A stretch of 64,000 bases of DNA. Origin: Candidatus Helarchaeota archaeon. Its GTDB lineage: Archaea > Asgardarchaeota > Lokiarchaeia > Helarchaeales > RDOG01. The stretch is taken from assembly GCA_019058315.1 (NCBI GenBank), contig JAHPZH010000003.1:556451-620450 (forward strand), written 5' to 3'. Position numbers and translations under genes: made by a program. Below, in pieces: positions 40,999-64,000 of the stretch; position 1 is the stretch's first letter, and each line of letters starts with the position of its first letter. The notes beneath the pieces were generated by a model. That model made no database searches, was not told the origin of the DNA, and saw only the letters and a list, made by a program, of their open reading frames with translations.

Positions 40999-41976
40999 CT
41001 ATCTGAAGTAATTGTCCATGGTTTGTTGCCTCATCTTAAAGTAGTCAAATGCTTTTTTCAAACGTTCAAGCCCTCTTTCAATGCGTTTTTGAGAAAATTT
41101 TCCATTCAAAAATCCTTTTAATATATGAAAATTTGGATAACGGAAATGGGGACCGAAATTAAATGATGGTGGATTTAGAAATTTTGACCGTAAAATAGTA
41201 AAATCAAATTCTAGTGGTATAAATTCTTCATTTATAGTTTCTAAATCATTGTATTTCTTTATTAATTTCAACGCTTTCTTTGGACCTATGCCTTTCACAC
41301 CTCCTTTATTTAAATCTGTTCCTATTAATAATGCTATATCAACTAATTGTTTATATGTAATCCCAAGATGAGTCAAATTATCCTTTAGTTTTATCAAAGT
41401 TAATGTATCATTTTCAAAATCCAGGTCTTTTATCATATTTTTAGATCCAAATAATAAGACATCATAATCATAAGAAACCACTCCAAAGGCATATTTTTCC
41501 CTCACAATGCGGCATGCTTGTGCTTCACCTTCGGAAGGGGCTCTTACAGCGGGTAATCCCATGAATTTTAAAAATTCAATACATTCAACAATTGCCTTAT
41601 CAAATAGAAAAGCATAATCGTTCAATGCTCTGGAATTATAATTACCATCTTGGATGCTATCGTGGTATTTTTTCCAAAGATATAACAATTTCATATTATG
41701 ATACGTGGGAACCTTCCTTTTTTCCTCCATAGGCATCCCATCGAATACATAGATTGGACGTAATTTTCGTTCCATTAAGTTTATTGTAAAGTAAAAAATT
41801 CCTATCAAGTGAGATATGGGTTCTTTTTGATTTTTTCTTAAATTTTTATCAATATGGGATATTTTAGAAATATATCGCACTAAAAAATTAGTCCCATCAA
41901 CAGCTACAGTCTTTCCTCTAATATCTTCAAATTCAACACTTTCTGTTTTTAAGATCGGTGTTAATTTACATCCCAT
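40999..41976 (-). CDS. fen: Flap endonuclease 1 (FEN1/XPG family), divergent paralog
   Basis: AVDG, VFDG, APSEGEAQA, SYDYD, IGTD, GIGPKKALKL; C-terminal PIP box QQTMDNYF. Confidence 0.88.
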   Translation of the reverse strand: MGCKLTPILKTESVEFEDIRGKTVAVDGTNFLVRYISKISHIDKNLRKNQKEPISHLIGIFYFTINLMERKLRPIYVFDGMPMEEKRKVPTYHNMKLLYLWKKYHDSIQDGNYNSRALNDYAFLFDKAIVECIEFLKFMGLPAVRAPSEGEAQACRIVREKYAFGVVSYDYDVLLFGSKNMIKDLDFENDTLTLIKLKDNLTHLGITYKQLVDIALLIGTDLNKGGVKGIGPKKALKLIKKYNDLETINEEFIPLEFDFTILRSKFLNPPSFNFGPHFRYPNFHILKGFLNGKFSQKRIERGLERLKKAFDYFKMRQQTMDNYFR

Positions 41977-42565
41977 TAAAATACCCCAATAGATTCTTTT
42001 TTCCTGGTTTCTTCAAAACAATTTCAAAAATCCCGGTTGTTCTATGGAATCCGTTATTCTGTATTAAAAGTGAGTTTAATTTCACATTCAAATAAAGCTG
42101 ATACAAAATTTCCCAATGTGTCCTGGATTGACTTTCCGTTTTTCTAATGAGATTAATCATGTTTTTTATCTCAGAATTGCTTGAAGAATATGCTATCTTT
42201 AATTTATTGACTTTCATCAGACGAATTTTTTTAGGAATATATCCTTCTCGAATTCCAAATCTTTTAGAACGATAATATAACTGCCTTAATTTCTCTTTTT
42301 TACAGAATATTAACTGACAATCGCTTATCTTACCCAAAATTAAATGAAGGAGTCGAAATTCTTCATCAATCCGTTCTATCATGAAGTTCTCTGGGAATGT
42401 TACAGGACGAGGACCTAATTTTTCAATTTCGCTGGTAATAAATTTAGTCTCATTTCCGTTATGATATACAAGATAATGTATCGAATCGCCATAGTTCTGT
42501 TTCTTTAACTTGGGATCTTCGCTTTTACCAATTTCAAAATCAAAAAATAATTGATTTATCATCAA
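41966..42565 (-). CDS. Stand-alone degenerate PolB-type 3'-5' exonuclease-like domain (tentative)
   Basis: ExoI-like LFFDFEI; EEFRLL...LYYRSKRFGI resembles the ExoII region without its N/D residues. Confidence 0.4.
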   Translation of the reverse strand: MMINQLFFDFEIGKSEDPKLKKQNYGDSIHYLVYHNGNETKFITSEIEKLGPRPVTFPENFMIERIDEEFRLLHLILGKISDCQLIFCKKEKLRQLYYRSKRFGIREGYIPKKIRLMKVNKLKIAYSSSNSEIKNMINLIRKTESQSRTHWEILYQLYLNVKLNSLLIQNNGFHRTTGIFEIVLKKPGKKNLLGYFNGM

Positions 42566-42678
42566 TTTTCACCGAAAGAAAGAACGTATTGGAGTGAATT
42601 TATAAGGTTTTCCCTCATCCAGAATTTTTGTCGGATATTCAAATAGATCTTTAAAGAAATCGAAATTTGTTTATACAA

Positions 42679-44286
42679 TTAGCTTTCAAATCCTCTTTCA
42701 CGTAATTGTCTTCGAAAGTCGTCTTCCGAAATTTCACCTTTCATTTTGGAATATTCAAGCAACTTTTGAACTCCTAATTCTGTAATTTTATAGGTGTTTC
42801 TTCTGGTCACTCCGAGGACTTCTTGACTCTGAATCAAAAAACGTAATTGTATGAGTTTATGGAGTAATACTCGCAAGACTTCATCCTCGATACCCGTAGC
42901 TGATTGAATTGAGCCATACATGATTTCATCGTATTCAGTAGCGATAGATAGAATGTTCTTAACATGTTCTGCATATTGATGGAAACTTCTTTCAATCGCA
43001 CTTCTTTCTGGGACAAATATAGGACCGAAATCCCAATCCGGATAAAACATTTTTAATCGCTCTTGAATTTCCTCGTCTTTTAGAACATGCGTTTCATCAA
43101 AATTCAGATAATCAAACATTATAGGAAAACAACTTTTTACATCGGGTCGATTAAGCAGGGCTTCACCTTCTTCCATAACTCGTAGATATTCATACTGATA
43201 TTGATATTTTCGTTTTTCAGAATAGGTCTCCGTGGTTCCCTCTTCTCGTGGTCGAAAGCTCAAATTCAATAAGGAACGTAATGCTTGGCTTTCTTCAAAA
43301 GAATGAGTTCTATGGACTATTATATTGAGAAAATTCGATAATATTTGTGGAATTATTAAAGAAGGATATTGAATCGAAGTGTGTATGCCAATATCATTAC
43401 GTCGTAATGTGCTCATCCAATTAAGCAGCGAGAAGTGAGGATCATCGTTTCTTCCAATATATAATTTCGGCTGTTCCATTCCAAAGATTAAATCTCCATC
43501 ATCTATTAGTATCATAAAATCTCTATAATTAAGAAATTTGGATAGTGTGATTATTTTGATCAATATTAGAAAAATCAAAAACCTGCGACTTCTCTTATCA
43601 TTTACATCAATTTCTATTAATGCAGGAGCATCTGATACAATTTCATAAATATTTTTCTTTGTATTAGCGATCATTCTTGTCGTTTCCCCGCTTAATAAAT
43701 TATCAATATATTTATAGACGGCATTAAATTCATTTCTTTCCTTATAGCTTATTTCAGGAGCCATAACTCCGTTCCAAAGCTCATCTGTAAAACTATTCAT
43801 TGCAGGACTATTACCATACATTTCATAGACATTTTTTAACATAGTCGAGATCGCAGCTACTATCTCATCACTGAAATTTACTGACAATCGTAACATTTCA
43901 ATAAAAAAGGGGATATAATTTTCAGCAGGTACCCCTTCAGTATCAAGTGGTCCGATAGAAATATCCTCTCCAAGACGAAATATCTTCATAGTAGGGATGA
44001 AGTCTGCAAGTCTTCGATAATTTTTATTGGAAGATATTATTATATAGGGGATATTTTTTTTCACAGATTCATAGACTATCTTGGCATTTGTTAAAAATCG
44101 TTCGAGTATGTTACTTCCAACTACGATAACTCCATTTCTCATATCATCTTCCCGTAGCCCGATGGGAAGTTCTTCATGTAAAAATTCAGTTTCTATTGTA
44201 TTTCCTAATGGACCTATCTCACTTTCTAAATTTGTAGGAACAATAAATTCCACCGGATATTGGTATGGCATCGATTTTACAGCCAT
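42679..44286 (-). CDS. HerA/FtsK/VirB4-superfamily ATPase-like domain with degenerate Walker motifs and C-terminal wHTH; probably the C-terminal part of a frameshift fusion
   Basis: PIGLREDDMRNGVIVVGSNILER, IPYIIISSNKNYRRL, ILIDDGD, LRRNDIGIHTSIQYPS..ILSN..IVHR; YKITELG. Confidence 0.7.
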   Translation of the reverse strand: MAVKSMPYQYPVEFIVPTNLESEIGPLGNTIETEFLHEELPIGLREDDMRNGVIVVGSNILERFLTNAKIVYESVKKNIPYIIISSNKNYRRLADFIPTMKIFRLGEDISIGPLDTEGVPAENYIPFFIEMLRLSVNFSDEIVAAISTMLKNVYEMYGNSPAMNSFTDELWNGVMAPEISYKERNEFNAVYKYIDNLLSGETTRMIANTKKNIYEIVSDAPALIEIDVNDKRSRRFLIFLILIKIITLSKFLNYRDFMILIDDGDLIFGMEQPKLYIGRNDDPHFSLLNWMSTLRRNDIGIHTSIQYPSLIIPQILSNFLNIIVHRTHSFEESQALRSLLNLSFRPREEGTTETYSEKRKYQYQYEYLRVMEEGEALLNRPDVKSCFPIMFDYLNFDETHVLKDEEIQERLKMFYPDWDFGPIFVPERSAIERSFHQYAEHVKNILSIATEYDEIMYGSIQSATGIEDEVLRVLLHKLIQLRFLIQSQEVLGVTRRNTYKITELGVQKLLEYSKMKGEISEDDFRRQLRERGFES

Positions 44287-44293
44287 CTTAGGA

Positions 44294-44337
44294 GCCTGGA
44301 GAAGATGATTGATCCCCTCCAGGCCTGTTAGAAAAAA
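44294..44337 (-). other. Putative programmed -1 ribosomal frameshift signal
   Basis: Slippery T TTT TTC (44337-44331), spacer TAACAG, hairpin GCCTGGAGGGGAT-CAATC-ATCTTCTCCAGGC. The -1 frame is open into ORF 42679..44286. Confidence 0.75.
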
Positions 44338-45233
44338 CGAAACTTCCCGCCGTCTGTTATCTGGACTCGTTTGGCAGCTAATAAATCCTTATCTTCAAGA
44401 AGTACTAATTTTGAATGTGGAAAATTGACCAGAAATGAGGATTCCAGCTTTTGAAGATTCAATTTCACATTTTCATAGACCTCTTGGATCGTTTCTGCTA
44501 CATTTGTCCCAATTTTTCTATTATCGGATGTCCCAAACACAATCCGTGCTTCCCAAACACCTTCCCTGTTTAAAAGAAATGAATTTAAACCATCTCCACC
44601 TAATGAATCCATAAATTTGCGCATATCTAACGTGACATTTTTCAAGCGTTTAACCTCTTTTTCATTAATTGGTGCTTGGACGTAATTCCAGAAGATAGGT
44701 ATTTTTTGACCGTAAATTGAGCGTATGAAATCATTGAATTTTCCGCTGATACTTATTGGTATTGTATCAATCTTAAAAAGCCCAAATGCCGCTATACGTC
44801 CCCGACTCTCAAAAAATAAGACATCTTTATGTAATTCTCCCGTATCCTTATCTCTATAGAAAAAACATTGTATATCATTCATGAAATCCACTGTTTCTAT
44901 AGCTGCTTTTGAAAGACTTGAAAATGCCCCCCTTATCCTGTAGGATATTTGAGGTTGTAGAAGTATTGAAAGTCCTGAAAAAACCACTATAGCAATTAGT
45001 GCTGATACAATCATATCTTGGATGAATGAAGTACATATTACCCATATGGATAAGGAAATTATCAATGTCCCTATCATTATAAATAAAATTCTTGATAAAC
45101 TAGGATGAATTATGCGATCTCCCGACCAGAAGTGTTGCGAACTCCTTAATTCTTCAGTTCTGCGTCTGTAAGCTTCATTTCTGCTTCGATTATTTCTATT
45201 ATAGATATTTCTATCATAACTTTCATCTAACAT
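44328..45233 (-). CDS. Two-TM membrane protein (probable start MLDESY at 45233); N-terminal part of the frameshift fusion
   Basis: Two adjacent TM helices followed by a soluble domain; stop codon directly follows the slippery site; AGGTGA upstream of ATG 45233. Confidence 0.7.
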   Translation of the reverse strand: MLDESYDRNIYNRNNRSRNEAYRRRTEELRSSQHFWSGDRIIHPSLSRILFIMIGTLIISLSIWVICTSFIQDMIVSALIAIVVFSGLSILLQPQISYRIRGAFSSLSKAAIETVDFMNDIQCFFYRDKDTGELHKDVLFFESRGRIAAFGLFKIDTIPISISGKFNDFIRSIYGQKIPIFWNYVQAPINEKEVKRLKNVTLDMRKFMDSLGGDGLNSFLLNREGVWEARIVFGTSDNRKIGTNVAETIQEVYENVKLNLQKLESSFLVNFPHSKLVLLEDKDLLAAKRVQITDGGKFRFF

Positions 45234-45238
45234 TCCTT

Positions 45239-45718
45239 TCACCTTTTGAAAACGTAAATTACACCTATGATTATATAATAAATAAAATAGGGCAAGAGAG
45301 ACCAATTATTACCCCAATTTGCAGGGTCCAAAAAATTTTCAACTATAAAGAAGATTGTGATTCCAAACCAGACCAAAGCCCAACCAAATGCAGCTTTCTG
45401 CCACGCATTTAGATCTACATCGGGATCATCTTGTATGTTTTTAGTGTGTCCAATCGCACCACCCCTTACCATATACATTGTTTCCGATATATTCCTTGCT
45501 TTTTCTAACAAAATTCGATTTCGCAAGTCTCTTTGTGTGTCCCTGACAGAATCTTTAATATTTTTTGTCACCATTTCTTCCGAAAACTGGTTAAATATTT
45601 TTCCAGAATCCTTTCCCTTGAATAAAAACGACTTTATAGCAAAAAAACTGATGATGGCTGCAAGTAATAAGGGCCATTGTGTTATGAATTCCAGATATCC
45701 TAAACTCATTCGTGTCAC
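45239..45718 (-). CDS. Three-TM membrane protein
   Basis: Hydrophobic segments at both ends; in the operon. Confidence 0.7.
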   Translation of the reverse strand: MTRMSLGYLEFITQWPLLLAAIISFFAIKSFLFKGKDSGKIFNQFSEEMVTKNIKDSVRDTQRDLRNRILLEKARNISETMYMVRGGAIGHTKNIQDDPDVDLNAWQKAAFGWALVWFGITIFFIVENFLDPANWGNNWSLLPYFIYYIIIGVIYVFKR

Positions 45719-45734
45719 CTACATTAATTTTAAC

Positions 45735-46085
45735 CTATAAATGAATCATTGTGAATAAGAGTAACAATGAACTACCGTCTTCAGGAGGAGGTTGAGTTGG
45801 CTGACCGTTGAATAGGAACCAGAGATACCAAAGAGTATACATTCCGATTTGACTCACTGATGTATTGAAAATTTCCATCCGATACCCAAAGATCTTGGTA
45901 AAAACTATCATGCAGACAGTAAATAGGACAAATCCAGCAAACATGTATTTGTTAAATTGCCTATTACCGATAAACATTAGAAATCCAATCATTGTAACTG
46001 CTGCAAGCAGGACTAACACTATTGTCATGAACCAAGTAGCGACTGCTTGTAAGGTTAAAGTTACATTTCCTAGAACATCAACCAT
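45735..46085 (-). CDS. Small hydrophobic protein, VirB2/TrbC/CedA1 pilin-like (tentative)
   Basis: Amphipathic helix, TM, short basic loop (GNRQFNK), TM. Confidence 0.45.
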   Translation of the reverse strand: MVDVLGNVTLTLQAVATWFMTIVLVLLAAVTMIGFLMFIGNRQFNKYMFAGFVLFTVCMIVFTKIFGYRMEIFNTSVSQIGMYTLWYLWFLFNGQPTQPPPEDGSSLLLLFTMIHL

Positions 46086-46150
46086 TTTTTCACTTTCTTC
46101 TTTTTGATTTTTTGAAAGATTCTGGTGGTATTAACTATTTAAAAAGATGA

Positions 46151-46558
46151 TCATCCATCTTGAAGGAGGATTTTTTCCAGTAATAAATCAATTTTTGACA
46201 TGGCAAAAATAGATTCAGCAAAAATGGTTATTTGTGCGAGTTGATCATTATATCCGAGATGCAAATAAAATTCCCCTGACTCATTTTTTAAATACCAGAT
46301 ATCTTCATCATTAGATACGGGTTGAAATCCTAAACCTAAAAGGTATTCCTTAAAATTATTTAGATCTTCGTCATCAGCAAATCTCAATATTCGTTTAGTT
46401 TTGTATCTATCCCTTAAAAAATACGGTTCTCTGATGATTGTATCCCTATCTGGTATCGGAAACATTATTTTATTGTATATTATAATCCCTATGACTATGA
46501 TAACTAAAAAAATCACCAAACCGATGATTGAACCTAACAATTCTGCGTAATTTTCCAT
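46151..46558 (-). CDS. Single-TM protein, first gene of the membrane/ATPase operon
   Basis: N-terminal TM segment plus small soluble domain. Confidence 0.7.
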   Translation of the reverse strand: MENYAELLGSIIGLVIFLVIIVIGIIIYNKIMFPIPDRDTIIREPYFLRDRYKTKRILRFADDEDLNNFKEYLLGLGFQPVSNDEDIWYLKNESGEFYLHLGYNDQLAQITIFAESIFAMSKIDLLLEKILLQDG

Positions 46559-46624
46559 TTTACAATCAGACTTATAAAGTCACTATAATGCTTTTTAAAA
46601 CTTATGTAAAAAAGGTGAATTTTC
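46559..46624. promoter_or_regulatory. Compact divergent promoter region
   Basis: 66 bp between divergent start codons, with TATA-like cttataaag and ctttttaaaa. Confidence 0.5.
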
Positions 46625-48859
46625 ATGGCTTTCGAATTGAAACGTTTTGGCTTGGATCAGAGGATAGTTGATATATTAATAGACCACAAAATTACAGAAC
46701 TGCGAGAAATTCAGAAAAAAGCTTTGAGATTGGGGCTCTTAAAAGGTCGAAAATTGCTTATCGTTGCACCTTCGGGATCTGGAAAAACCCTTATAGGAGA
46801 AATTGCTGCGGTTGATAGGATATTAAAACAAGGGACAAAAAGCGTCTTTTTAGTTCCTTTAAAAGCTATTGCTAATGAGAAATATGCTGAATTCACTGAA
46901 AAATATTCAAAATTAGGAATAAGTATTGCTTTGAGAACCGGGGATATCAAGGATGAACGATTGGATGTATTAAAATTCGACTTAATTATTTCGACATATG
47001 AACGATTCGATTCGTTGCTACGAACTGTTGTAGAAAAGGAGGAAAATTGGCTGGGGACAGTCGGCACAATTGTTATTGATGAAATTCATATATTAAATGA
47101 TTATTATCGAGGTCCAAGACTAGAGGGATTGATAAACAGGTTGCAACTTTATGCTTCAGATACTCAAATTATCGCACTTTCTGCAACCATTGCCAATCCC
47201 GAAGAACTTGCATTATGGTTAAATTGTAACCTAGTAAAAAGTGACCACCGACCAGTTCCCCTTGCATATGAAATTGTAGCGACTGCTGATAAAATTATTA
47301 CTATAAACAAATATGTGATTGAGACCTTGAAGCAAAATGGGCAGGTCCTCGTTTTTGCAAAGACTCGAAAGGAGGCCCAAGCATTAGCAAGGGGGCTTAC
47401 CACGGTGCTCCTTGAACATAAATTGTTAGATTCTGATGCACGTGTAAAACTAAATAACATATTTAAAAATGTGGAAATGACGCAGCGAGCAAAGTTGGAC
47501 CGGAGTCTTATAAGTGCATTGAGGTTTGGTGTTGCATATCATCATGCAGGGCTTGCATTATCTACAAGAAAGCTAGTTGAAGATAATTTTCGCGATCATT
47601 TGATTAAAGTAGTTTGTTGCACTACTACACTTGCTGCTGGGGTAAATCTCCCAGCAATGACTGTAATAGTTAAGGATTGCCAAGTAATTACCACTGATCC
47701 TAATCTAATTGTCGGTGATGATAGTCTCTATTGGCGAAATCAATTGGAACCCAATTTGCTTCACCAAATTTTAGGCAGGGCAGGAAGACCGGGCTATGAT
47801 GATGTAGGTATAGGTATTATTCTGACACCCACGAATGTCGACAAGAATAGGATTGAGCAATACTACTTTCATAGGCATAATGGAACTCTCTATCCTAAAT
47901 ATACAAATGTAAAAAGTAAATTAAACCAGAGAGAAGAACTCAAAGAGCAAGTATTAGTGAGAATACGTGAAAAAAAAGCTATGACTGCTCGACAAATATT
48001 AGATGACTTTCAAGGTTCTCTTTTATGGCACCAAATTCAATACGAAGATCCCTCAAAACCCATAGATCAATTGATAGAGATAGGTGCAATTTCCATCCAA
48101 AAAACTATTGAGGAACTTTCGGATGCGGAAATAAGGAAAAAAGCAAGGGCTATTCCAGATGGAGCGGTTCAAATCACGAAAGTCGATGAAAAAATACTTC
48201 AAGGGATTGTTTCTTCCAACATATCCCATACTTGCGCTCTATTTAGAGACTTTCCAAGCTGCACCTGTAGGGAGTTTAAGTTTAGGGAGACGACTGGTCA
48301 AATTACATTATGTAGACATTTGATAAAACTGATTGAGGTCGGATTAAAACATTACCCAAGCTTGACAAATGACTTGGCTTGTCTTTCCCTTCAAAAAGAA
48401 TTTATAATGGACTCCTTGGTAAAAGGGAATATGGTCAGATTAAGGGGGGATGAATATGTTCTTACTCCATTGGGTGATCTAATTGTCACAGCATATATTA
48501 AACCCCAAACAGCACCTGTAATAAGGGCCCATCTTGCGAGAATGACTTCAATTGCTGAAGTTTTAGAAGCTATTAGAGGAATATATACCGTTGAGATGCA
48601 TAAATATGTGGATTCAGACTTTGCTCAAATCATGTCCTATGTAATTGAACGTCCTCCAGGTGAAGATATAATGCCAAGGATTCTAGAGACATCTGAAAAA
48701 TATTTTAAAGGTCAGGGAGATATTGAGGAATTTATTTCCTTTACAAAATGGATATTAAGTGCGATAAAGAAGTTTGGGGAGCTATATGAAGTTGAGAATG
48801 CTGTTTATTATGCTGAAGAAATTGAAAGATTGTTAGAAATACCAAGAGAAGAAGAATAG
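46625..48859 (+). CDS. Ski2/Hel308-like SF2 helicase with inserted SWIM zinc finger
   Basis: APSGSGKT, VPLKAIANEK, DEIH, LSAT, HHAGL, TTTLAAGVNLPA, QILGRAGRPG; SWIM motif CTC...CRH. Confidence 0.9.
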   Translation: MAFELKRFGLDQRIVDILIDHKITELREIQKKALRLGLLKGRKLLIVAPSGSGKTLIGEIAAVDRILKQGTKSVFLVPLKAIANEKYAEFTEKYSKLGISIALRTGDIKDERLDVLKFDLIISTYERFDSLLRTVVEKEENWLGTVGTIVIDEIHILNDYYRGPRLEGLINRLQLYASDTQIIALSATIANPEELALWLNCNLVKSDHRPVPLAYEIVATADKIITINKYVIETLKQNGQVLVFAKTRKEAQALARGLTTVLLEHKLLDSDARVKLNNIFKNVEMTQRAKLDRSLISALRFGVAYHHAGLALSTRKLVEDNFRDHLIKVVCCTTTLAAGVNLPAMTVIVKDCQVITTDPNLIVGDDSLYWRNQLEPNLLHQILGRAGRPGYDDVGIGIILTPTNVDKNRIEQYYFHRHNGTLYPKYTNVKSKLNQREELKEQVLVRIREKKAMTARQILDDFQGSLLWHQIQYEDPSKPIDQLIEIGAISIQKTIEELSDAEIRKKARAIPDGAVQITKVDEKILQGIVSSNISHTCALFRDFPSCTCREFKFRETTGQITLCRHLIKLIEVGLKHYPSLTNDLACLSLQKEFIMDSLVKGNMVRLRGDEYVLTPLGDLIVTAYIKPQTAPVIRAHLARMTSIAEVLEAIRGIYTVEMHKYVDSDFAQIMSYVIERPPGEDIMPRILETSEKYFKGQGDIEEFISFTKWILSAIKKFGELYEVENAVYYAEEIERLLEIPREEE

Positions 48860-49027: not shown

Positions 49028-49504
49028 TTAATGAAGTTTAAAACCACAATTAGCGCAATAGTCATCAAATACACTACAGGAATAACCACAGTTTGGACAT
49101 ATAATAAGATCATTGCTTACTTGCCCAAAACATGCTCTAATACTATCATCATTTAAATATCGAATAATAAGACTAAGTACCATTATCACAAGCATAACTA
49201 TTGGGAAAATAATACGGTTGTCTGGAATAGAAATAGGTATTAAAAATATAATGGAAGCTGTAAGAGCTATTGGATAATTAATAATTGCAATTATGGTTAA
49301 AATTCGACCCCACTCCTTTAAATTTAGCAGACTTGTACCCGCAGCAACGTTAAGGATGGATGTGCATAGATAAATTATTGACCCTATAAAAATTGAATAA
49401 CTTCGATGAAACATCGCATAATTAATTGAAGAAAAAATACCAAGAGTGCCAAGAATATTTAATATTATTCCCAACGCGGTTATTCCAGCGGGTTTTTGTA
49501 ACAA
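49028..49504 (-). CDS. Four-TM protein with C-terminal zinc ribbon
   Basis: KPAGIT, LKEWGR; CPNCG...CANCG. Confidence 0.75.
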   Translation of the reverse strand: MLQKPAGITALGIILNILGTLGIFSSINYAMFHRSYSIFIGSIIYLCTSILNVAAGTSLLNLKEWGRILTIIAIINYPIALTASIIFLIPISIPDNRIIFPIVMLVIMVLSLIIRYLNDDSIRACFGQVSNDLIICPNCGYSCSVFDDYCANCGFKLH

Positions 49505-52123: not shown

Positions 52124-52325
52124 ATGTCTGAAATCCTATATCTGGACTCATATTTCCCAATTTTAACTCTTGAATGTATTCTAATGCGGATTTAGCCTTC
52201 TCAAATGTCTTAATTCTTTCATATCGATTCTTTATACCGCACTTTCTGCAAGTTACACCTTTCTGGTTTGCCCTAATGAACGTTAATTCTTGACATTTAA
52301 GGCATTTTATTACAATATATGCCAT
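52116..52325 (-). CDS. Small zinc-ribbon protein (DUF1922-like)
   Basis: YIVIKCLKC...QKGVTCRKCG. Confidence 0.7.
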   Translation of the reverse strand: MAYIVIKCLKCQELTFIRANQKGVTCRKCGIKNRYERIKTFEKAKSALEYIQELKLGNMSPDIGFQTFE

Positions 52326-54365: not shown

Positions 54366-55127
54366 TTGTCAAGGACTAGACCTTTAATTATTCTTTTTTT
54401 AATCCCACTATTATTTTTTTCTCTAATCCCCGAATCTAAGGCGGAGTTATCCATCCCATTAATACGATTACCCTATCCAGATCTTACCTTATATTATCTA
54501 ATTGAGGGAGAAAGTATATTACAAAACGTAAATCCCTTACTTACCGTAAACTCGAGGCATAAATCATTCCTCCCAACTAGTATGTTACGTGTGACATTTC
54601 CAGACTATTATAATAAATCTAAAAAAGAGATGGTATATGAATTACGATATTTTGGATTTACAAATGGAGTAAATACTACTCTCAACGAATTAACCAGGGC
54701 CACAAAAGATGATCAATTTTGTCCGTTTTACCTTAAATATAGTGGAATTCCCAATATTATAGGTCTTGAATTTGACTGGATATATGAGTATGGGGGTGTT
54801 AAATATATTCAATGGAAAGATATTTGGTTAAAAACTACATTATATTACTTTAATTATCAAGATGGTGCCACAACATATTCATTTCGATTTTATTATGATT
54901 ACACAAGTCATGTTTTAATCCAATTAGAAGAAGAGACCACCACAAATTTAATCCAGACACAATACTTGAAATATACTTTGTTCATCGGAAATGTGTATGT
55001 AACCCAGCAATCTAATTTTACAGGAGAATGGGGGCAGATGGCAAATTATGTTATTGCTATTATAATTTCTTTGGTAGCCACGATATTTTTTGGATTGTTT
55101 TTAGTAAAGAAAAAAATGAAAAATTAG
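54366..55127 (+). CDS. Secreted protein with C-terminal TM anchor
   Basis: Signal-like N-terminus; C-terminal TM followed by KKKMK; 2 nt after the radA stop. Confidence 0.7.
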   Translation: MSRTRPLIILFLIPLLFFSLIPESKAELSIPLIRLPYPDLTLYYLIEGESILQNVNPLLTVNSRHKSFLPTSMLRVTFPDYYNKSKKEMVYELRYFGFTNGVNTTLNELTRATKDDQFCPFYLKYSGIPNIIGLEFDWIYEYGGVKYIQWKDIWLKTTLYYFNYQDGATTYSFRFYYDYTSHVLIQLEEETTTNLIQTQYLKYTLFIGNVYVTQQSNFTGEWGQMANYVIAIIISLVATIFFGLFLVKKKMKN

Positions 55128-55329: not shown

Positions 55330-56154
55330 TTGACAAGCATGTCTGAGAATATACTTTTTCATGAAAAAAAGCACGGTTTATGTGGTTTTATAACAAATAA
55401 AGAAATTCGGGTTCTTTTGGGAAAAGATTATGTAGAACGGAATTATGTAGAGGTCGAATCTGAGATTATGGTCACTGAAACTAAAATTATTATTACACCT
55501 AAAATGAAAAATTATGATTCAATTACTCTTCCAATCAATCAAATAGTCCATGTAGAAAAAAAAGGAGAGTTTGAAGTAGATAAATGTGATAAAAAATGCT
55601 TTTCTTGGATATTTTTACAAAATGGCGTTAATTATAAAATTACATTTAATAGGGGAGCCAATAATAAATCAGAAAAAACTTATGATATGGATTTGAATAA
55701 TGCTTTTTATGGCGCACTGAGGCTCCCTTTGAGGCAGATTCATCAAGAAAGACAAAGAAAAAAAAGAAATTTGTTACAGAAAAAAGAAAAAACAAAAATT
55801 AATTGGTTTAGAAGTAGGATTAAAAAGTACCTTATCCCCTATAATGAGATCACTTTTAAAAAAATTGCAGCAGACTTCGATCTGAACATAATTCTCGTGG
55901 AAGAGGAACTAAAAAAGATGATTGCGAATGATATAATTAAGGGGAAGTTAATTCCAAATGGAATCGTCTTTTCAAGTCAGACTCATAATCAGCAAGTTCA
56001 ACAATCATTCGTTATTAATGCCACACTACCATCTGGAACAATAGAAGTGGGATCGAGGGCGTCAATTTGTCCACAATGTAAGGCACCATTAAAACGTGAG
56101 CCTCCTTGTAAATGTGATTATTGTAGTTTTCTCATTTCAAGCCCAGACAGATGA
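55330..56154 (+). CDS. PH/GRAM-like + PCI-like wHTH + zinc-ribbon protein
   Basis: EIMVTETKIII...ITLPINQI; YNEITFKKIAADFDL...VEEELKKMIANDIIKGKL; CPQC...CDYC. Confidence 0.7.
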   Translation: MTSMSENILFHEKKHGLCGFITNKEIRVLLGKDYVERNYVEVESEIMVTETKIIITPKMKNYDSITLPINQIVHVEKKGEFEVDKCDKKCFSWIFLQNGVNYKITFNRGANNKSEKTYDMDLNNAFYGALRLPLRQIHQERQRKKRNLLQKKEKTKINWFRSRIKKYLIPYNEITFKKIAADFDLNIILVEEELKKMIANDIIKGKLIPNGIVFSSQTHNQQVQQSFVINATLPSGTIEVGSRASICPQCKAPLKREPPCKCDYCSFLISSPDR

Positions 56155-56973: not shown

Positions 56974-57375
56974 TCAATTTAAAATTTTTCCACAAAATTT
57001 ACAAACAGCTATTTCATTATTTAATAACTTTTGCCCTTGTTCTTTACTTATGGGGGCATGACAATGTGAACATTCCCATTTTGCTTTAGCTTCACTTACT
57101 TTTTTTTCTTCGGTTTTTACTTTTTTCCGTGGAATTTTATTTTTCTTTCCAATATATATCATAGTTTTATCAAATAATCGAAATTCAATTTCTCCATCTT
57201 GTATCATTTTCTTAATTATGGGTTTAATAAATTTAGCTTTATAATTCAACTTAGAAGCTATTTTAGGGATTGTTATTGTATTATACTGAGAGAGAAGTTT
57301 CTTTAATTTAATTTTAGCTTTCTCTTCTGCTTCTCTTAATTCTTTTTCTTTTTCTAATTTTCTAATTTTTTTCAT
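56974..57375 (-). CDS. PCI-like wHTH + zinc-ribbon protein
   Basis: YNTITIPKIASKLNY...IIKKMIQDGEI; CSHC...CKFCG. Confidence 0.65.
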   Translation of the reverse strand: MKKIRKLEKEKELREAEEKAKIKLKKLLSQYNTITIPKIASKLNYKAKFIKPIIKKMIQDGEIEFRLFDKTMIYIGKKNKIPRKKVKTEEKKVSEAKAKWECSHCHAPISKEQGQKLLNNEIAVCKFCGKILN

Positions 57376-58074: not shown

Positions 58075-58079
58075 TTAAA

Positions 58080-58751
58080 TCACGAATTAGTAACAGTGGC
58101 AACCTTATAACATCCGATTAATAGAATTAAAGCCATAAAATAAGTAGAAATGAAATAAAACCAATTTATTTCATATACTGAATAAGCATTCCAAGAACCC
58201 GCAAACCATGCAGGAATAAAAGCAATAACAAGAGACATTAATTCAAATAGGGACCGCTTAGCATTAGTGTTAAATGGAACAAAAATAGTCTTTAGGTCTG
58301 GAGGGCTAGGCAATGCTGTAAATGTAAGGGTAAATATTAAATAATATTTTATTGCTTCATGTAAATTCGGTAAATAATAAAGTATTAATCCTACAAAAAG
58401 TCCATTTATGATGGCAGGACCTACTGAAATAAGAAAACTACTTAAAAAACTTTCCGGTTCTTCACAATCTACATATCCTGCTGCACCTGGTACTTCAGGG
58501 TCACCAAAAGTAAAAAATTTGACTTTTCTTACAGGTGTGCCAGTTATTATGCAAAAAATGAAATGACCAAACTCATGTAGGGCAATCCCTGGAATACAGA
58601 TTACTAAAAAGAATTTTCCAAGATAAGATACATATCTTTTAAAAGCTTCAATCTTTAATATTGAATTTATAACTATCGAGGCGAAAACTACTGCTATTAT
58701 TACCGTAACACCGAAAGGGATAAAATCAGATATGCTTTGGATTATTTCCAT
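58080..58751 (-). CDS. Membrane zinc metalloprotease (M50-like/DUF3267)
   Basis: PGIALHEFGH, GYV, ISVGP, PSPPDL. Confidence 0.8.
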   Translation of the reverse strand: MEIIQSISDFIPFGVTVIIAVVFASIVINSILKIEAFKRYVSYLGKFFLVICIPGIALHEFGHFIFCIITGTPVRKVKFFTFGDPEVPGAAGYVDCEEPESFLSSFLISVGPAIINGLFVGLILYYLPNLHEAIKYYLIFTLTFTALPSPPDLKTIFVPFNTNAKRSLFELMSLVIAFIPAWFAGSWNAYSVYEINWFYFISTYFMALILLIGCYKVATVTNS

Positions 58752-59093: not shown

Positions 59094-61577
59094 TTGAAAC
59101 GAATAATATCGCAAAGGAAAAACAAAAAACAATTATTTTTTATTGGAGTGATAGGATTAGTCATTATTCTATATTTTTGTTTCGATGCAATACGACCTAT
59201 TAATGGTCTAAATTTTGTTCCAAATACTGGAAAACATACCCAACTCCCCATATTTTCTTCTGCTATTAAGAATGTAACAGAAGCAAATCTATCAATTCTT
59301 TATCCTGTAAATATTGACCGATATTATACCGAACCTCTAAATGGTTTTGGGTCAGGAACTGTTGAAAATCTACAAAATGAAACAGGGATAGTCACTACCG
59401 CTGAGACTTATCCTAGTTCGGACTATGGAAACATATCTGTCGAAGTTTCTTTTAATACAACTGGTCTGGATATCAGCTCCATGACATTATTTCGTGTCAA
59501 TTGGGAAGGAAGTATCGCATCTACTGCAAGTTCAGTAGTGGATACAAAATTAAATGTATATATAGACAATCAAGGTGGCTGGGAAATGCTGCACAATGCA
59601 ACAAATACGGGTGGTAGTTTAATTGAACGTAAAATTGGATGGTGGGAGCATGCTATTCCATCAAATTTTCAAAATTATATTAGCGGAAATACTATTAAAC
59701 TAAAATTCGAGGCTGTCCAAAATTTAACAGCGACAGAAAATAATTGGTATTTTTATTTATTTCTTCATTGGTCAAATATTGTATTTGGAAAGGATATCGA
59801 ATTCACAAGATTAAATGCTACAGCCATCGAATTAATCTATAATGATACCAATTATGAACAAATTGGAAATATAACCAGTCTAGAAAATGATGAGGATAGT
59901 GATGTCCTATCTATAAAAATAAATGAGACATTGGTAGCTGGAAGGAACAATATTACCTTTGATGTCGTATTTGATTTACTTAATTATTCTTTGGATGACA
60001 TTTATGGTTTTACTTACTACCATGATGATTGGTTTTCATTCAATGGTGGGATTGAACCTCCACAATTGGGAACTATTAGTATTCAGAATACCTCCTCAGG
60101 TCAATTATTCCCAATTCAATATTTACGGGACTCCCATATTTCTTATACTAATTTATATCCAAAACAAGGCTTTGCAGCATACACATTTACAGACGCTGGG
60201 TGGTGGAATCCATCGGGATTACGGTTACGATATTACCGAAATATAACTGGGATTACTAATTGGGCTAAAATTGAAATCGATCTTGGATATATTGAACTTG
60301 CTAGAAGAACAAGTCCTATATTTTCCGTCTATGTAGAGAATAATACAAGGTATATTGATGAAATTGAACATATCCAAATTTTTGTTCAAAATTATAGGAG
60401 TAACGTGACTGATATTCAAGTTATTAGTTCGGAAGGAAATTCTTTTGTTAATGACTCAGAAGGAAATTACACATTTGAGATTACAAGGACAACATCAGGA
60501 TGGTATAACTTCTCAGTTCAAATTATAGATAATGAAGAGCATTTAGTCACTAAGGGTCTCTACAAAATTTGGTTTAATGGACGACCAGTTAATATCGACA
60601 TAACCTTATCTCCAATCCCTCAAGAAATTAACTGCCTACTTGTATTTACAGACAGTATTTATGGAGCTCCCGTAGCTAACAAAGCCTTTGATCTATGGAT
60701 TTATAGATATGGGGAGACTATCCCCTATGCTAGTTATCCCGGACTGACTACTAATGCTTCGGGGATGTTTTTTGATAGTTATAGTGTTCTTCCATACCTT
60801 GATCAAAGTTATACGTTTAATGTAACGACTTATGCAGATGCTAGCTATAGTCGTTGCTCGGTAACAAGTTCTATAACTTGTTCATATGCCCCCCCAAGGT
60901 TTACAATAACAGATGTCGTTTATAATTCTCAATATTCTGGAGAAACGGTTACTATACATTACACTTTGGAAGACTGGACCGTAAATATTGTAAGTGCTAA
61001 TCTCAAGGAAAATGGAAATTTCATAACAAGCATCCCTATCTCTCCCGGATTAAATCAAGTTTCTTTCACTACAATAAGCGGTAATAATAATTACACACTA
61101 TGGGCCGTAAATTCTAGAGGACAAGTGGGTGAATCCGAGATTGTGAATCTAAATTTATTTCTAAAACCGATAAAATTGGATATATTAACTTTTTACTTGG
61201 ACGATTTCTTCTATTTCTTTATAGACGTGAAGGATAATGAAACGGGTTCAAGTCTTGATGGTGTTCCGGTCCGAGTTTCAGTGTATGATAGCGGATTTCT
61301 ATTATTTTCAGGTCAAGTTGAAACTCATTCTATAATCGTTGGGGGCTTTCCCTTTGATGGGGGATTAGACCACCATTTCTTGTTCAGGGCTGAAGTCGTA
61401 GAAGATAATTTCGAAAATCGTCAAAAAGAATCACAATTACCATTTCAAGCATATCCTATATTGGAATTATTGACCTTTGGATTAATAACTCCAGCGATTG
61501 TAGGAGTAATTATATTTCCCCGATTAATAAGTAAAAGACGGAGATTTAGGCATAACGGACGTTATCGCCAAAGTTAA
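59094..61577 (+). CDS. Large surface glycoprotein with Ig-like beta domains and C-terminal TM anchor
   Basis: N-terminal hydrophobic segment, many N-x-S/T sequons, C-terminal TM followed by a basic tail. Confidence 0.8.
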   Translation: MKRIISQRKNKKQLFFIGVIGLVIILYFCFDAIRPINGLNFVPNTGKHTQLPIFSSAIKNVTEANLSILYPVNIDRYYTEPLNGFGSGTVENLQNETGIVTTAETYPSSDYGNISVEVSFNTTGLDISSMTLFRVNWEGSIASTASSVVDTKLNVYIDNQGGWEMLHNATNTGGSLIERKIGWWEHAIPSNFQNYISGNTIKLKFEAVQNLTATENNWYFYLFLHWSNIVFGKDIEFTRLNATAIELIYNDTNYEQIGNITSLENDEDSDVLSIKINETLVAGRNNITFDVVFDLLNYSLDDIYGFTYYHDDWFSFNGGIEPPQLGTISIQNTSSGQLFPIQYLRDSHISYTNLYPKQGFAAYTFTDAGWWNPSGLRLRYYRNITGITNWAKIEIDLGYIELARRTSPIFSVYVENNTRYIDEIEHIQIFVQNYRSNVTDIQVISSEGNSFVNDSEGNYTFEITRTTSGWYNFSVQIIDNEEHLVTKGLYKIWFNGRPVNIDITLSPIPQEINCLLVFTDSIYGAPVANKAFDLWIYRYGETIPYASYPGLTTNASGMFFDSYSVLPYLDQSYTFNVTTYADASYSRCSVTSSITCSYAPPRFTITDVVYNSQYSGETVTIHYTLEDWTVNIVSANLKENGNFITSIPISPGLNQVSFTTISGNNNYTLWAVNSRGQVGESEIVNLNLFLKPIKLDILTFYLDDFFYFFIDVKDNETGSSLDGVPVRVSVYDSGFLLFSGQVETHSIIVGGFPFDGGLDHHFLFRAEVVEDNFENRQKESQLPFQAYPILELLTFGLITPAIVGVIIFPRLISKRRRFRHNGRYRQS

Positions 61578-61597
61578 ATTTATGGAGTATTTATAAA

Positions 61598-61861
61598 ATG
61601 AATATAATTTTTGCACTAATTGAAATAGTCCGGACAATAACATTCTTTTTCACATGTGGTGTGGCAATGATATTTTGTTATAATATTTTAAGCTATATTT
61701 TTGGGCTTGATTCTCCTGGAAAATCCATGAAGGCGTTGGGCATCAGTTTTCTGTTAATTATATTATTATTAACTCTAGATAACACGGTCTATTCGATTTA
61801 TCATGTGCATATTATAAATACGAAAATAGCTTTGGGGGCGACTCCAGATCCGATATTTTGA
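61598..61861 (+). CDS. Small two-TM protein, pilin-like (CedA1/VirB2-type, tentative), paralog 1
   Basis: Helix, TM, GLDSPGKSMKAL loop, TM; collinear with the next ORF. Confidence 0.5.
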   Translation: MNIIFALIEIVRTITFFFTCGVAMIFCYNILSYIFGLDSPGKSMKALGISFLLIILLLTLDNTVYSIYHVHIINTKIALGATPDPIF

Positions 61862-61870
61862 GGTGTCAAT

Positions 61871-62110
61871 ATGATCTTTACTGTAATATTAGGAATTGTA
61901 CAAAATTTAGTTTTTATAGCTATAATGATTGATATAATATTGATAATCTGGAATTTGTTAGGATGGCAACTAGGAATTTATGGTTCTGGAGGGTCGAAAA
62001 GAGCCTTAATGATTACCATAGGCATTCTTATAGGAATTTTCTACCTAGATGCTATATTGTTCGATATTTTCAAAGTTCATATTGTCTCATTCCCAGTTTT
62101 TATAATTTAA
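61871..62110 (+). CDS. Small two-TM protein, pilin-like (CedA1/VirB2-type, tentative), paralog 2
   Basis: WNLLGWQLG...GGSKRAL; shares LD...(Y/F).I(Y/F).VHI with paralog 1; GAGGTG upstream. Confidence 0.5.
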   Translation: MIFTVILGIVQNLVFIAIMIDIILIIWNLLGWQLGIYGSGGSKRALMITIGILIGIFYLDAILFDIFKVHIVSFPVFII

Positions 62111-62128
62111 TTTTATGGAGAGAAGATA

Positions 62129-64000
62129 ATGGCAAGTCATAGTATAGCAGAAGATGTTGAAGCACAAGATATGATAAAAGAAGTAAAGCCGAATATGACT
62201 AGAATTGAAAAATTAAATGCTTTTGCAAAGGAATTAATAATTCGTAAAGGTTACATCCCTCTAAATAGCGAATATTTTACGTCCCTACGCCACACAAAAT
62301 TATATTATCGACCTATTTATTTCTATCCCGCACCAGGAGAAAAAATCTGTGTTATTGATATATTGCTCCCCCATGGTACTTTAAAGGATAAAAGCCAACT
62401 TATTACTCAATTAGAATTGCTCAATAAAGAATGTAAGGAAATCCGTTCGATTTTATTGCAAGAATATCAGAATTGCCCAAAAGTATTTAATGATCAACAA
62501 TTCGGTTATGACGAATTTGGATTTATTCCTAAGAGATCTAAATTAGTTCCCTTATATGGTGAGTCATTACAAGTAGTATTTTCGGTAAAACCCATCATTT
62601 TAACAATTAAAGGCAAACCAGAATATGATATTCAGAGAGATTCGAGAGTAGATATTGTTCCAATTGAAAAAATTCAATGGTATTTAAATCAGTGGAGAAA
62701 TGAGGTAGTTGAACTAGCTAAAAAGGCATATAATATTAAGAAATTTAAACACTTTGAAGCACAAGACACTTTTGAAAAGTGGACATTGTTATTCTTGATG
62801 TTATATATGATACCCGTTGAATTAAACAACTTTCTCCAGTGGAATCTATGGTTTCTATCATTTTATTTCTTTCTTGCTGTTGCACTTTCAGTGGGTATTT
62901 CTAATTTTCCTCATAATTATCTTAGATATAAAAAATTCTCTAAATTATGCCGGGAAGAAATAATATCCTCTAAATGGGTAGATCAAAGCAGTTTTTTGAA
63001 ACCATTCCTCACTCGTTCAAAACAGCTATTGGTCCAACCCCTGGAAAATAAGCAAGGTGTAAATCAAAAGGTATATTCACAAAATAGAGATGAGATTAAA
63101 CCACTATTCTCAAAATCTCCTACCACAAATTCGATGAATACTATAGGAACAACAGTTAAGACATCAAGACCGGTAGAGAGCAGGGGGGAGATTAGAGAAG
63201 ATACCAATACTAAAGTTGTCCCGGAGGAATTAGTGCCAGACACTCCTTTAATAAAACCTTCTGGACCAAGAGGCATTAAAACCTTATTACTGAGGAAGTC
63301 GAAATCTAATGTCAATATTGAAATTTACAAGGAACAACTTGGTGATCTTTATTCTAAATTAAAAACAACTACAGACTTTGAAGTTTTTAGAATTACAGCA
63401 TTGAGAATTATCACCTTAATTCTTACTTGCGAATGGTTTAAGCGGACTGGCACTCCTCCTGTAAATATCAGGATTAGAGAGGTCTCAAATGATAGGATTG
63501 ACCACTTTCGACAAGCCGAAAACTTACTAACTCAATTTCTAGAACGGCTCCCTGATGCTATTAATATTGATGAGGTGTACCGCTTTGCTACTATAATAAA
63601 TATGGGTCAGATGAATCAAAAAATGATAGATCATGTTGAATGGAAGATAGAGGATTGGCTTTTAGATTATAAGCTTTTACCAGCTAATAAAATGAAAGTT
63701 TTACAAGCTAACCATTCTAAAATAACATCAGCTCCCGAAAGGATTGTGAGAAATTACACTGATAAGGTGGATTCAACTTTATCTAAGTTTAAAACTATAG
63801 ATTTGGAACGAAAAATGTCCCCTAAGCAGGAGGATAAGCCGGAGATTCCCGAAAAACCAAAGATTACCAATAAACCAAATACAGAGAAACTTCCAGAAAG
63901 GCGAATTGAAAGGAGACCTTTTACCTCACCAACCAGAAAAGAACAGTCAAATATTGTGGAAGAAGAAAAAAGCCTTGATACTATTATAAATGAAGCAAAA
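62129..64000 (+). CDS. Large hypothetical protein with two central TM segments, 3' end outside the window
   Basis: Not in the ORF track; translated by hand from ATG at 62129 (MASHSIAEDVEAQ...) and open to the window end (...LDTIINEAK); GGAG upstream. Confidence 0.75.
   Translation, partial: MASHSIAEDVEAQDMIKEVKPNMTRIEKLNAFAKELIIRKGYIPLNSEYFTSLRHTKLYYRPIYFYPAPGEKICVIDILLPHGTLKDKSQLITQLELLNKECKEIRSILLQEYQNCPKVFNDQQFGYDEFGFIPKRSKLVPLYGESLQVVFSVKPIILTIKGKPEYDIQRDSRVDIVPIEKIQWYLNQWRNEVVELAKKAYNIKKFKHFEAQDTFEKWTLLFLMLYMIPVELNNFLQWNLWFLSFYFFLAVALSVGISNFPHNYLRYKKFSKLCREEIISSKWVDQSSFLKPFLTRSKQLLVQPLENKQGVNQKVYSQNRDEIKPLFSKSPTTNSMNTIGTTVKTSRPVESRGEIREDTNTKVVPEELVPDTPLIKPSGPRGIKTLLLRKSKSNVNIEIYKEQLGDLYSKLKTTTDFEVFRITALRIITLILTCEWFKRTGTPPVNIRIREVSNDRIDHFRQAENLLTQFLERLPDAINIDEVYRFATIINMGQMNQKMIDHVEWKIEDWLLDYKLLPANKMKVLQANHSKITSAPERIVRNYTDKVDSTLSKFKTIDLERKMSPKQEDKPEIPEKPKITNKPNTEKLPERRIERRPFTSPTRKEQSNIVEEEKSLDTIINEAK

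Follow-up and report, generated by a model that had tools for sequence, protein, structure and literature searches.

The Ced (CedA/A1/A2/B) and Ted (TedA/B/C) systems of Crenarchaeota are DNA-import systems that represent domesticated type IV secretion systems (T4SSs); the pilins of the two systems share no sequence similarity with each other, and Ted loci carry repair genes such as HerA and Rad50 (PMC9905601). Here we analyze a stretch of 64,000 nucleotides (hereafter, the window) from a Candidatus Helarchaeota archaeon (assembly GCA_019058315.1, contig JAHPZH010000003.1; C11:556451-620450 in our contig numbering), whose genome comprises 5.79 Mb in 12 contigs with a G+C content of ~31%. An earlier note on this DNA had read part of the window as a candidate island for DNA transfer and recombination. 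Rather than an island peculiar to one genome, the region is a chromosomal module conserved in many Asgard archaea, in which a P-loop-less protein derived from VirB4 is co-inherited, and coupled in operons, with intact helicase, recombinase, and nuclease paralogs.

Like Ced and Ted, the Asgard module is chromosomal rather than plasmid-borne, combines a VirB4-family protein, a membrane anchor, and small proteins with two transmembrane (TM) helices in one operon, and is associated in the genome with DNA repair genes, with a proposed role in DNA exchange for recombination. Unlike in those systems, the Asgard VirB4 homolog lacks Walker A throughout its family and bears a C-terminal winged helix, no CedA/TedA-like pore of 6-7 TM helices or CedA1/TedC-like pilin was identified by sequence in the module, and the cluster has dedicated Hel308, RadA, RadB, FEN1, and XPD paralogs, which Ced and Ted do not have. 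The VirB3-VirB4 proteins of bacterial T4SSs (TrwM/TrwK of R388; Thermoanaerobacter VirB4; PDB 4ag5, 7o42, 8rtd) offer a second comparison, sharing two TM helices, a putative VirB4-type N-terminal domain, a RecA-like C-terminal domain, and a similar fused length of ~800 amino acids, with both halves matching in fold (the N-terminal half weakly). The Asgard protein differs from them in having no Pfam or NCBIfam match, in the loss of the P-loop, and in the added winged helix, and VirB6, B8, B9, B10, VirD4, and a relaxase were not found with the module. FtsK/SpoIIIE likewise have an N-terminal membrane anchor, an FtsK/HerA-superfamily domain, and a C-terminal winged helix, whereas the fold matches of the Asgard protein favor VirB4, HerA, and TrwB, its N-terminal soluble domain appears VirB4-like, and its ATPase site is dead. 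We treat the module as a probable variant of T4SS-derived DNA-handling systems, for which the mechanism set out below is a proposal.

Our literature search returned nothing relevant on this cluster, on SWIM-Hel308, or on Ced/VirB4 in Asgard archaea, which is not proof of absence. According to a preprint, RadA falls into two clades in some Asgard archaea, with gene context not given (10.1101/2025.05.23.655837), and a review of Hel308/HELQ merely notes the presence of Hel308 in Asgard archaea (PMC13623763). Throughout this work, gene families were scanned with Pfam, NCBIfam (with equivalog cut-offs), and PADLOC, and TM helices were assigned by hydropathy.

A predicted split VirB3/VirB4-like protein without Walker A

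Three features, all on the minus strand, form the center of the cluster:

42679-44286, minus strand: VirB4/HerA-fold pseudo-ATPase of 535 amino acids with a C-terminal winged helix (AlphaFold2, Foldseek, motif check)
44328-45233, minus strand: protein of 301 amino acids with two TM helices and a soluble domain resembling the VirB4 N-terminal domain (AlphaFold2, Foldseek, hydropathy)
44293-44337, minus strand: candidate -1 frameshift signal (sequence, hairpin folding, conservation)

An exhaustive phmmer search with the 535-residue protein yielded 124 cluster representatives of its relatives, 33 of which were aligned (alignment A2) and used for an AlphaFold2 model with a pLDDT of 88.8 and a pTM of 0.85. 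The best Foldseek matches of this model are the VirB4 C-terminal domain structures 4ag5/4ag6 (E 1e-10; TMt 0.72-0.75, target-normalized; root-mean-square deviation 3.9-4.6 across ~420 columns), followed by HerA, DndH, and TrwB. Family models for CagE_TrbE_VirB, DUF87, and AAA_10 gave zero matches in Pfam, NCBIfam, and PADLOC scans of the window protein and nine relatives, and a phmmer search of the 535-residue protein against the PDB gave no match; among the sequence-model tests, only the language-model features of this protein, which place it with DUF87/HerA/CedB clusters, support the assignment. All relatives looked up carry the name "hypothetical protein".

The P-loop position reads G-[ST]-x-x-L-E in four close homologs, all of which have lost the Walker A lysine and serine/threonine. 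Among the 124 representatives, GK[ST] at this position is confined to a few of the weakest matches, which are true ATPases, and is absent from nearly all others. Since Walker A is missing from all four close homologs and from nearly the whole set of representatives, the family is an old and stable one of pseudo-ATPases, and a VirB4 homolog that lacks Walker A across its family cannot be a motor. Close relatives retain a Walker B-like hhhhD[DE]GD motif, and the C-terminal ~100 residues of the 535-residue protein form the winged helix, with a weak HTH_34 match at residues 445-514.

The upstream gene has an open reading frame (ORF) that extends up to 45305, its likely start being the ATG at 45233. 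Its AlphaFold2 model (pLDDT 83) comprises two long TM helices plus an alpha/beta domain, whose top Foldseek matches are to the TrwK/VirB4 N-terminal domain of the R388 T4SS; these are weak (E 3e-3, probability 0.94-1.0), and in VIA-align the comparison with the VirB4 N-terminal domain reaches Z 5.9 over 152 residues, while unrelated alpha/beta folds reach Z 7.4. Most of the 124 representatives are fused proteins of ~770-850 amino acids in which similarity to the 535-residue protein begins near residue 300, and the extra N-terminal part of the fused forms is a homolog of the 301-residue gene (BLASTP, loci L045 and L046). From these fused relatives and the modeled folds of both halves, the pair is read as a predicted split VirB3/VirB4-like protein. 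The membrane-anchored HerA/VirB4-like protein of the earlier note therefore stands in part: its VirB4/HerA fold is borne out by the model, and the T4SS-like fold extends, weakly, to the upstream partner, but the membrane anchor of the pair is that upstream gene and not the 535-residue protein itself.

Other arrangements of related proteins were also observed. In a pseudo-ATPase form of ~1270 amino acids (P0033-P0037 and relatives, in genomes of family f4), the ATPase-fold part seems to be preceded by two tandem copies of the module made up of two TM helices and the N-terminal domain, the TM pairs lying near residues 55-90 and 285-335. The source genome also encodes, at other sites, active ATPases of the HerA/VirB4 type that have Walker A: a DUF87 protein of 703 amino acids beside a two-TM protein of 71 amino acids on a 2.5-kb contig (C4:172-2283; L023), and a protein of 1314 amino acids with seven N-terminal TM helices (C6:89673-93617).

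A candidate frameshift signal between the two halves

The 301- and 535-residue ORFs stand in a -1 frame relation in three independent assemblies, namely the window and two related Helarchaeota contigs (L012 and L013). In the window, a slippery T_TTT_TTC at 44337-44331 ends at the stop codon of the 301-residue gene (44330-44328), downstream of which come a spacer of 5 nucleotides and then a 14-bp hairpin (44325-44293; -28.9 kcal/mol, z -4.4). The combination of heptamer and stop, spacer, and hairpin is kept in all three assemblies (window 44293-44337, minus strand; L012 9950-10022; L013 7068-7142). The linker peptide, which the -1 frame encodes ahead of the annotated ATG of the 535-residue gene, is conserved as protein, and in P0005 the two halves are fused in frame at the linker point. 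From the conserved slippery site and hairpin, the conserved linker, and the P0005 fusion, we infer a -1 frameshift; the sequence evidence suggests that programmed -1 frameshifting yields a full-length VirB3/VirB4-like protein in Helarchaeota, which would be a rare candidate case of such frameshifting in archaea.

Paralogs of DNA-processing enzymes

Four genes of the cluster encode DNA enzymes, and their assignment as FEN1-, Hel308-, RadB-, and RadA-like in the earlier note was upheld by Pfam and NCBIfam domain matches:

40999-41976, minus strand: FEN1-like flap endonuclease paralog of 325 amino acids (Pfam XPG_N and XPG_I)
46625-48859, plus strand: SWIM-Hel308-like superfamily 2 helicase of 744 amino acids (Hel308 model, motif, tree)
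51410-52123, minus strand: RadB-like paralog of 237 amino acids (recomb_radB, TIGR02237)
53191-54363, plus strand: RadA-like paralog of 390 amino acids with an HhH domain, a Rad51 core, and a charged tail (Rad51)

A first sign that these are diverged extra copies is that all four fall below the equivalog cut-offs: 250 bits against 352 for the FEN1-like protein (fen_arch), 340 against 887 for the helicase (Hel308 model, with residues 1-474 as the only aligned part), 107 against 172 for the RadB-like protein, and 219 against 259 for the RadA-like protein (curated RadA model; 168.7 bits with Pfam Rad51). The genome holds a second, better-scoring FEN1 at C5:535335 and a canonical five-domain Hel308 at C6:130297, and in a genome-wide scan of the Rad51 family, which has 12 loci in total, the RadA-like protein of the window scores 170 bits, against 270-333 bits for three other copies. 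Maximum-likelihood trees separate the cluster-linked copies from their canonical counterparts. Every such copy lies outside the canonical clade for FEN1 (support 100/99) and Hel308 (100/100), the linked RadA-like copies lie outside the canonical RadA clade (97/97) without a resolved position, and all six linked RadB-like copies group in one exclusive clade (97/93), the sister group of canonical RadB (97/89); long branches leave the exact placement of fast-evolving copies unsure, while the splits between canonical and linked copies are well supported. The cluster helicase, RadA-like, RadB-like, and FEN-like genes are, judged by their sequences, extra copies and not housekeeping genes, and the proposal that the cluster has recombination paralogs of its own was thus sustained, with canonical radA, fen1, and hel308, and also a canonical RadB copy, elsewhere in the genome.

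The extra copies have features of their own. The helicase carries a SWIM-type zinc finger, CxC-x(n)-CxH, at residues 546-565, a motif that is invariant in all cluster-linked helicases and present in no canonical Hel308; its ratchet domain is divergent (domain 4 at 14.7 bits) and a C-terminal HhH domain is absent, whereas the C6 copy has both domains. In the FEN1-like protein, all seven acidic active-site positions are present and invariant in the alignment of the family (A7), in which the 12-residue insertion of canonical FEN1 is absent from all cluster-linked FEN-like proteins; most of the latter have a PIP-like motif at the C-terminus, which in the window reads QxxMxxYF. The helicase and the RadA-like and RadB-like proteins each retain an intact Walker A, and, from their motifs, the helicase, the two recombinase-like proteins, and the FEN-like protein look active.

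The same pattern was sought in five other Asgard genomes (G075, G038, G112, G007, and G043), all of which have a cluster-linked helicase and a second Hel308-type copy elsewhere. Canonical FEN1 and RadA lie elsewhere in G075, G038, and G112, with a diverged copy of each beside the pseudo-ATPase. Both FEN1 copies of G007 are on a contig other than that of the pseudo-ATPase, and in G043 a single FEN1 was found, ~20 kb from the pseudo-ATPase, with the best RadA-type copy proximal to the cluster.

Within the source genome, the twelve Rad51-family loci include a lineage-specific expansion around the RadA-like gene of the window, along with two long-branch loci, C2:14029 and C11:761081, that are nearly identical to each other. 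A eukaryote-specific affinity of the FEN-like and RadB-like proteins was considered and rejected: in PDB sequence searches they are closest to archaeal FEN1 and RadB, respectively, with no special affinity to GEN1, EXO1, or RAD51B/C.

Eukaryotic HELQ binds the BCDX2 paralog complex (PMC13623763). The module resembles archaeal Hel308 (Hjm) and eukaryotic HELQ in the genetic link between a Hel308-type helicase and paralogs of the Rad51 family. The SWIM-domain proteins Shu2/SWS1 are partners of Rad51 paralogs, which would place the SWIM zinc finger in the same functional neighborhood, although in the Asgard protein the finger sits inside the helicase. We know of no membrane coupling of eukaryotic HELQ or RAD51-paralog proteins comparable to that of the Asgard module.

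Distribution and gene order in Asgard archaea

Queried with the window protein, the pseudo-ATPase was found in 118 of 301 sampled Asgard genomes, including 47 of the 90 that are of high quality. In at least 78 of these 118 genomes (coordinates compared by hand), the SWIM-helicase lies on the same contig within 17 kb of the pseudo-ATPase; in the remaining genomes, the two are mostly split over contigs of fragmented assemblies. The spacing between the two genes is typical of the family, at ~1.4-2.5 kb in f10, 7-9 kb in f4, and ~10 kb in f22. With a query from f10 itself, the pseudo-ATPase was detected in 52 of 81 f10 genomes (19 of 23 high-quality ones; 15 of 16 genera), almost always once.

Gene order is conserved to different degrees. 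The two Helarchaeota contigs L012 and L013 retain the whole order of the window, while in families f10 and f29 the module is one tight operon in which the start of the helicase overlaps the stop of the pseudo-ATPase. The f10 locus L039 reads RadA-like, XPD-like helicase, small TM proteins, fused pseudo-ATPase, SWIM-helicase, TM protein, RadB-like, a protein with 6 TM helices, another Rad51-like protein, and FEN-like. Across f10, f29, f12, f15, and f22, the pseudo-ATPase is accompanied by differing subsets of SWIM-helicase, RadA-like, RadB-like, FEN-like, and XPD-like genes, and a genome of the same order (G240) likewise retains a subset. The recurrence of this gene set around the pseudo-ATPase in distant Asgard families is more than chance clustering and bears out the expectation that the cluster is conserved.

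The 20 kb past the window (L011) contain an XPD-like helicase that is the best match of the XPD in the f10 operon, another helicase of the DEAD/ResIII type, a second RadA-like gene, and genes for a DHH protein and an SSB-like OB-fold protein; of these, only XPD and RadA-like recur in other clusters, and with these two genes the module extends beyond the window. The suggestion that an active ATPase or an integrase might lie beyond the window was not borne out in these 20 kb, which hold more repair paralogs instead. A gene for a protein of 1334 amino acids starts at window position 62129, and 6 nucleotides after its end follows a RagA/Gtr1-like GTPase (Gtr1_RagA, E 1.6e-14; L011 16-3204). The DHH, SSB-like, RagA-like, and 1334-residue genes had no counterpart in the other clusters examined and are not counted as core.

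Envelope-associated and neighboring genes

The DNA enzymes are interspersed with membrane, surface, and accessory genes:

41966-42565, minus strand: protein of 199 amino acids (homologs at the same position in L012 and L013)
45239-45718, minus strand: membrane protein of 159 amino acids with ~3 TM helices (hydropathy; homologs at the same position in L012 and L013)
45735-46085, minus strand: pilin-sized two-TM protein of 116 amino acids (hydropathy; L012/L013 homologs 57-60% identical)
46151-46558, minus strand: single-TM protein of 135 amino acids, first gene of the membrane operon (hydropathy; homologs in L012 and L013)
49028-49504, minus strand: protein of 158 amino acids with about five TM helices and a C-terminal zinc ribbon (hydropathy; weak Zn_Ribbon_1 and DZR matches)
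49692-51416, minus strand: protein of 574 amino acids with about five N-terminal TM helices and a large soluble part (hydropathy; no Pfam family match)
52116-52325, minus strand: DUF5817 protein of 69 amino acids upstream of the RadB-like gene (Pfam DUF5817, E 3.7e-7; same layout in L012)
54366-55127, plus strand: protein of 253 amino acids with an N-terminal signal or anchor and a C-terminal TM helix (hydropathy; not seen in other clusters)
55330-56154, plus strand: PCI/winged-helix protein of 274 amino acids with a C-terminal zinc ribbon (Pfam PCI, E 8.5e-9)
58080-58751, minus strand: six-TM protein of 223 amino acids with an HEFGH motif, M50-like (sub-threshold Peptidase_M50, E 0.007)
59094-61577, plus strand: surface glycoprotein-like protein of 827 amino acids (N-terminal anchor, C-terminal TM helix, 24 N-glycosylation sequons)
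61598-62110, plus strand: twin small two-TM proteins of 87 and 79 amino acids (hydropathy; a 92-residue counterpart at the same place in G240)

The physical coupling of DNA enzymes to membrane genes described in the earlier note is as it had been given there: the RadB-like gene and the 574-residue gene overlap by 7 nucleotides and are thus translationally coupled, an arrangement mirrored in L012 and L013, where homologs of the 574-residue protein adjoin RadB-like; the RadA-like gene ends 2 nucleotides from the 253-residue gene; and the helicase and the membrane operon diverge from a 66-bp spacing. Hydropathy likewise agrees with the description of three small two-TM proteins (116, 87, and 79 residues) and of several multi-TM proteins (158, 574, 144, and 223 residues), and the large surface protein is as described. 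Two other assignments did not hold. The 199-residue protein, previously thought to contain an exonuclease-like domain, has no family match in Pfam, NCBIfam, or PADLOC and is conserved after the pseudo-ATPase in Helarchaeota relatives only, and for the supposed membrane metalloprotease the HEFGH motif is present but the Peptidase_M50 match is sub-threshold. Homologs of the latter, 223-residue protein lie beside the ~1300-residue pseudo-ATPase form in two f4 genomes (L038 and L040; BLASTP).

Homologs of the 274-residue PCI protein lie within the cluster in both related contigs (L012 6154-7485, L013 3987-4766; BLASTP), and the one in L013 is a PCI-like part fused to the homolog of the 135-residue membrane protein. 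A second PCI-domain protein of the window (56974-57375) likewise ends in a Cys-rich zinc ribbon, and a leucine-rich-repeat protein (LRR_4, E 1.3e-35; window 40114-40872, minus strand) directly adjoins the FEN-like gene. A homolog of the 827-residue protein follows the fused pseudo-ATPase in G240, and an Atlas search with this protein gave weak leads to beta-sandwich surface proteins and nothing more. Large glycoprotein-like proteins adjoin the pseudo-ATPase in five lineages, where they comprise two sequence families and a protein of 1081 amino acids in L043 without a clear relative; this recurrence of surface proteins favors a function at the cell envelope.

Possible functions of the module

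The role that we favor, at somewhat less than even likelihood, is DNA import or exchange between cells followed by homologous recombination, by analogy with Ced and Ted; two points favor it, namely descent from a T4SS and the recurrence of surface proteins and small two-TM proteins. In the proposed mechanism, the VirB4-like protein, no longer hydrolyzing ATP, would serve as a membrane ring or dock and grip DNA with its winged helix, alongside large surface glycoproteins and the small membrane proteins. Movement or unwinding of DNA at the dock would be powered by the SWIM-Hel308 helicase, together with XPD where present, and the RadA-like and RadB-like proteins, the latter tied to a membrane protein by gene overlap, would load on the single strand, after which the FEN1-like nuclease would trim flaps left by strand exchange. 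Compared with Ced and Ted, motor function would have shifted from VirB4 to the helicases.

Several observations weigh against DNA transfer. No active VirB4-type ATPase was found in the window cluster or in the other clusters examined, and, to our knowledge, an active ATPase is a hallmark of every known T4SS, Ced, and Ted system. Likeness of the small proteins to VirB2 or CedA1 was not detected: the 116-residue protein has no Atlas match, and the 116-, 87-, and 79-residue proteins gave only chance-level PDB profile matches. Nor was a VirB6-like pore demonstrated: the core operon has no protein with 6-7 TM helices, the nearby candidates being the 158- and 574-residue proteins with five TM helices each and the M50-like protein of 223 residues with six. 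When the Helarchaeota accessory proteins (574, 199, 135, 116, and 159 residues, and others) were compared with the f10 operon by hhalign, no similarity was found, the profiles being shallow; by this comparison, the small membrane proteins appear not to be detectably conserved between Helarchaeota and f10. The PIP motif of the FEN-like protein and the repair-type enzyme set would fit a purely intracellular repair role equally well, and the module is missing from many complete genomes: among those of high quality, the window query finds it in 47 of 90, and the f10 query in 19 of 23 from f10.

Such a repair role is nearly as likely as transfer, though it too is less likely than not. The module would then be a membrane-tethered complex for repair or chromosome processing without intercellular DNA transfer, laid out like FtsK, in which the pseudo-ATPase would tether chromosomal DNA to the membrane or to the site of division and the enzymes would meanwhile mend breaks or remove recombination intermediates. 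The TM anchor, the FtsK/HerA-superfamily fold, and the terminal winged helix fit this layout, all the enzymes are of repair or recombination types with intact motifs, the FEN-like protein retains its PIP-like tail, the downstream neighbors are RadA-like, DHH, and SSB-like, and sequence and profile searches of the small proteins demonstrated no pilin or pore. However, the best fold matches are to VirB4, N-terminal domain included, over FtsK; the recurring surface glycoprotein-like and small two-TM proteins would be superfluous for an internal complex; and canonical repair copies are already present in the same genomes. An anti-virus or anti-plasmid defense, in which the pseudo-ATPase would sense or capture incoming DNA and the helicase and FEN-like nuclease would destroy it, we consider improbable. 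The helicase does match Hachiman HamB and other defense helicase models (PADLOC, E 1.8e-44), HerA-fold defense proteins are among the fold matches (SIR2-HerA, DUF4297-HerA), and the patchy distribution over genomes and fast protein evolution (33-46% identity within one family) would suit a defense system. Yet the HamB match is expected of any Hel308-type core, PADLOC models match the helicase alone among the cluster proteins, and a HamA-like partner was not detected. Recombinases of the RadA/RadB type and a FEN with a PIP motif are also atypical as defense effectors, and the single-copy module keeps its gene order over whole families, unlike shuffled defense islands.

An integrated conjugative or other mobile element carrying its own recombination genes, as the earlier note had also proposed, is very unlikely. 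The VirB4-like protein and small TM proteins are present, and active HerA/VirB4-like ATPases exist elsewhere in the genome (those on C4 and C6), but the ORFs scanned for such hallmarks (window 37931-64000 plus the 20 kb downstream) revealed no integrase, relaxase, coupling protein, or active VirB4, nor were there a tRNA, flanking direct or att-like repeats, or a G+C content different from the rest of the window. Moreover, the 118 of 301 Asgard genomes that have the module carry it as a single copy, with spacing conserved within each family, and its ATPase is dead throughout the family. Repair genes often cluster in archaea, and this general tendency could also place housekeeping repair genes beside unrelated membrane genes by chance. 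That explanation is the least credible of all and is contradicted by the tests run: genome searches and trees indicate that the copies are not housekeeping genes, the linkage recurs in distant families, and overlapping start and stop codons couple the DNA enzymes to the membrane genes.

Concluding remarks

Returning to DNA exchange, the broadest form of the hypothesis would be that Asgard archaea carry an ancient, vertically inherited apparatus for the exchange of chromosomal DNA between cells, in which a T4SS remnant with a non-catalytic VirB4 dock is driven by SWIM-Hel308 and wired to its own RadA/RadB/FEN/XPD set, and in which Helarchaeota obtain the full-length VirB3/VirB4-like protein by -1 frameshifting; in this full form it is possible but rather unlikely. 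The module suggests that a T4SS ATPase can persist as a catalytically dead scaffold, and it accounts for part of the high number of Rad51-family paralogs in Asgard genomes. It also offers candidates in the form of an unannotated P-loop-less VirB4 family, a family of Hel308 helicases with a SWIM finger, and RadB-like and FEN-like lineages specific to the cluster, and because each paralog has a canonical counterpart in the same genome, function-specific roles are testable. The question of DNA exchange and recombination in Asgard archaea bears, in turn, on the origin of eukaryotic sex and on genome dynamics.

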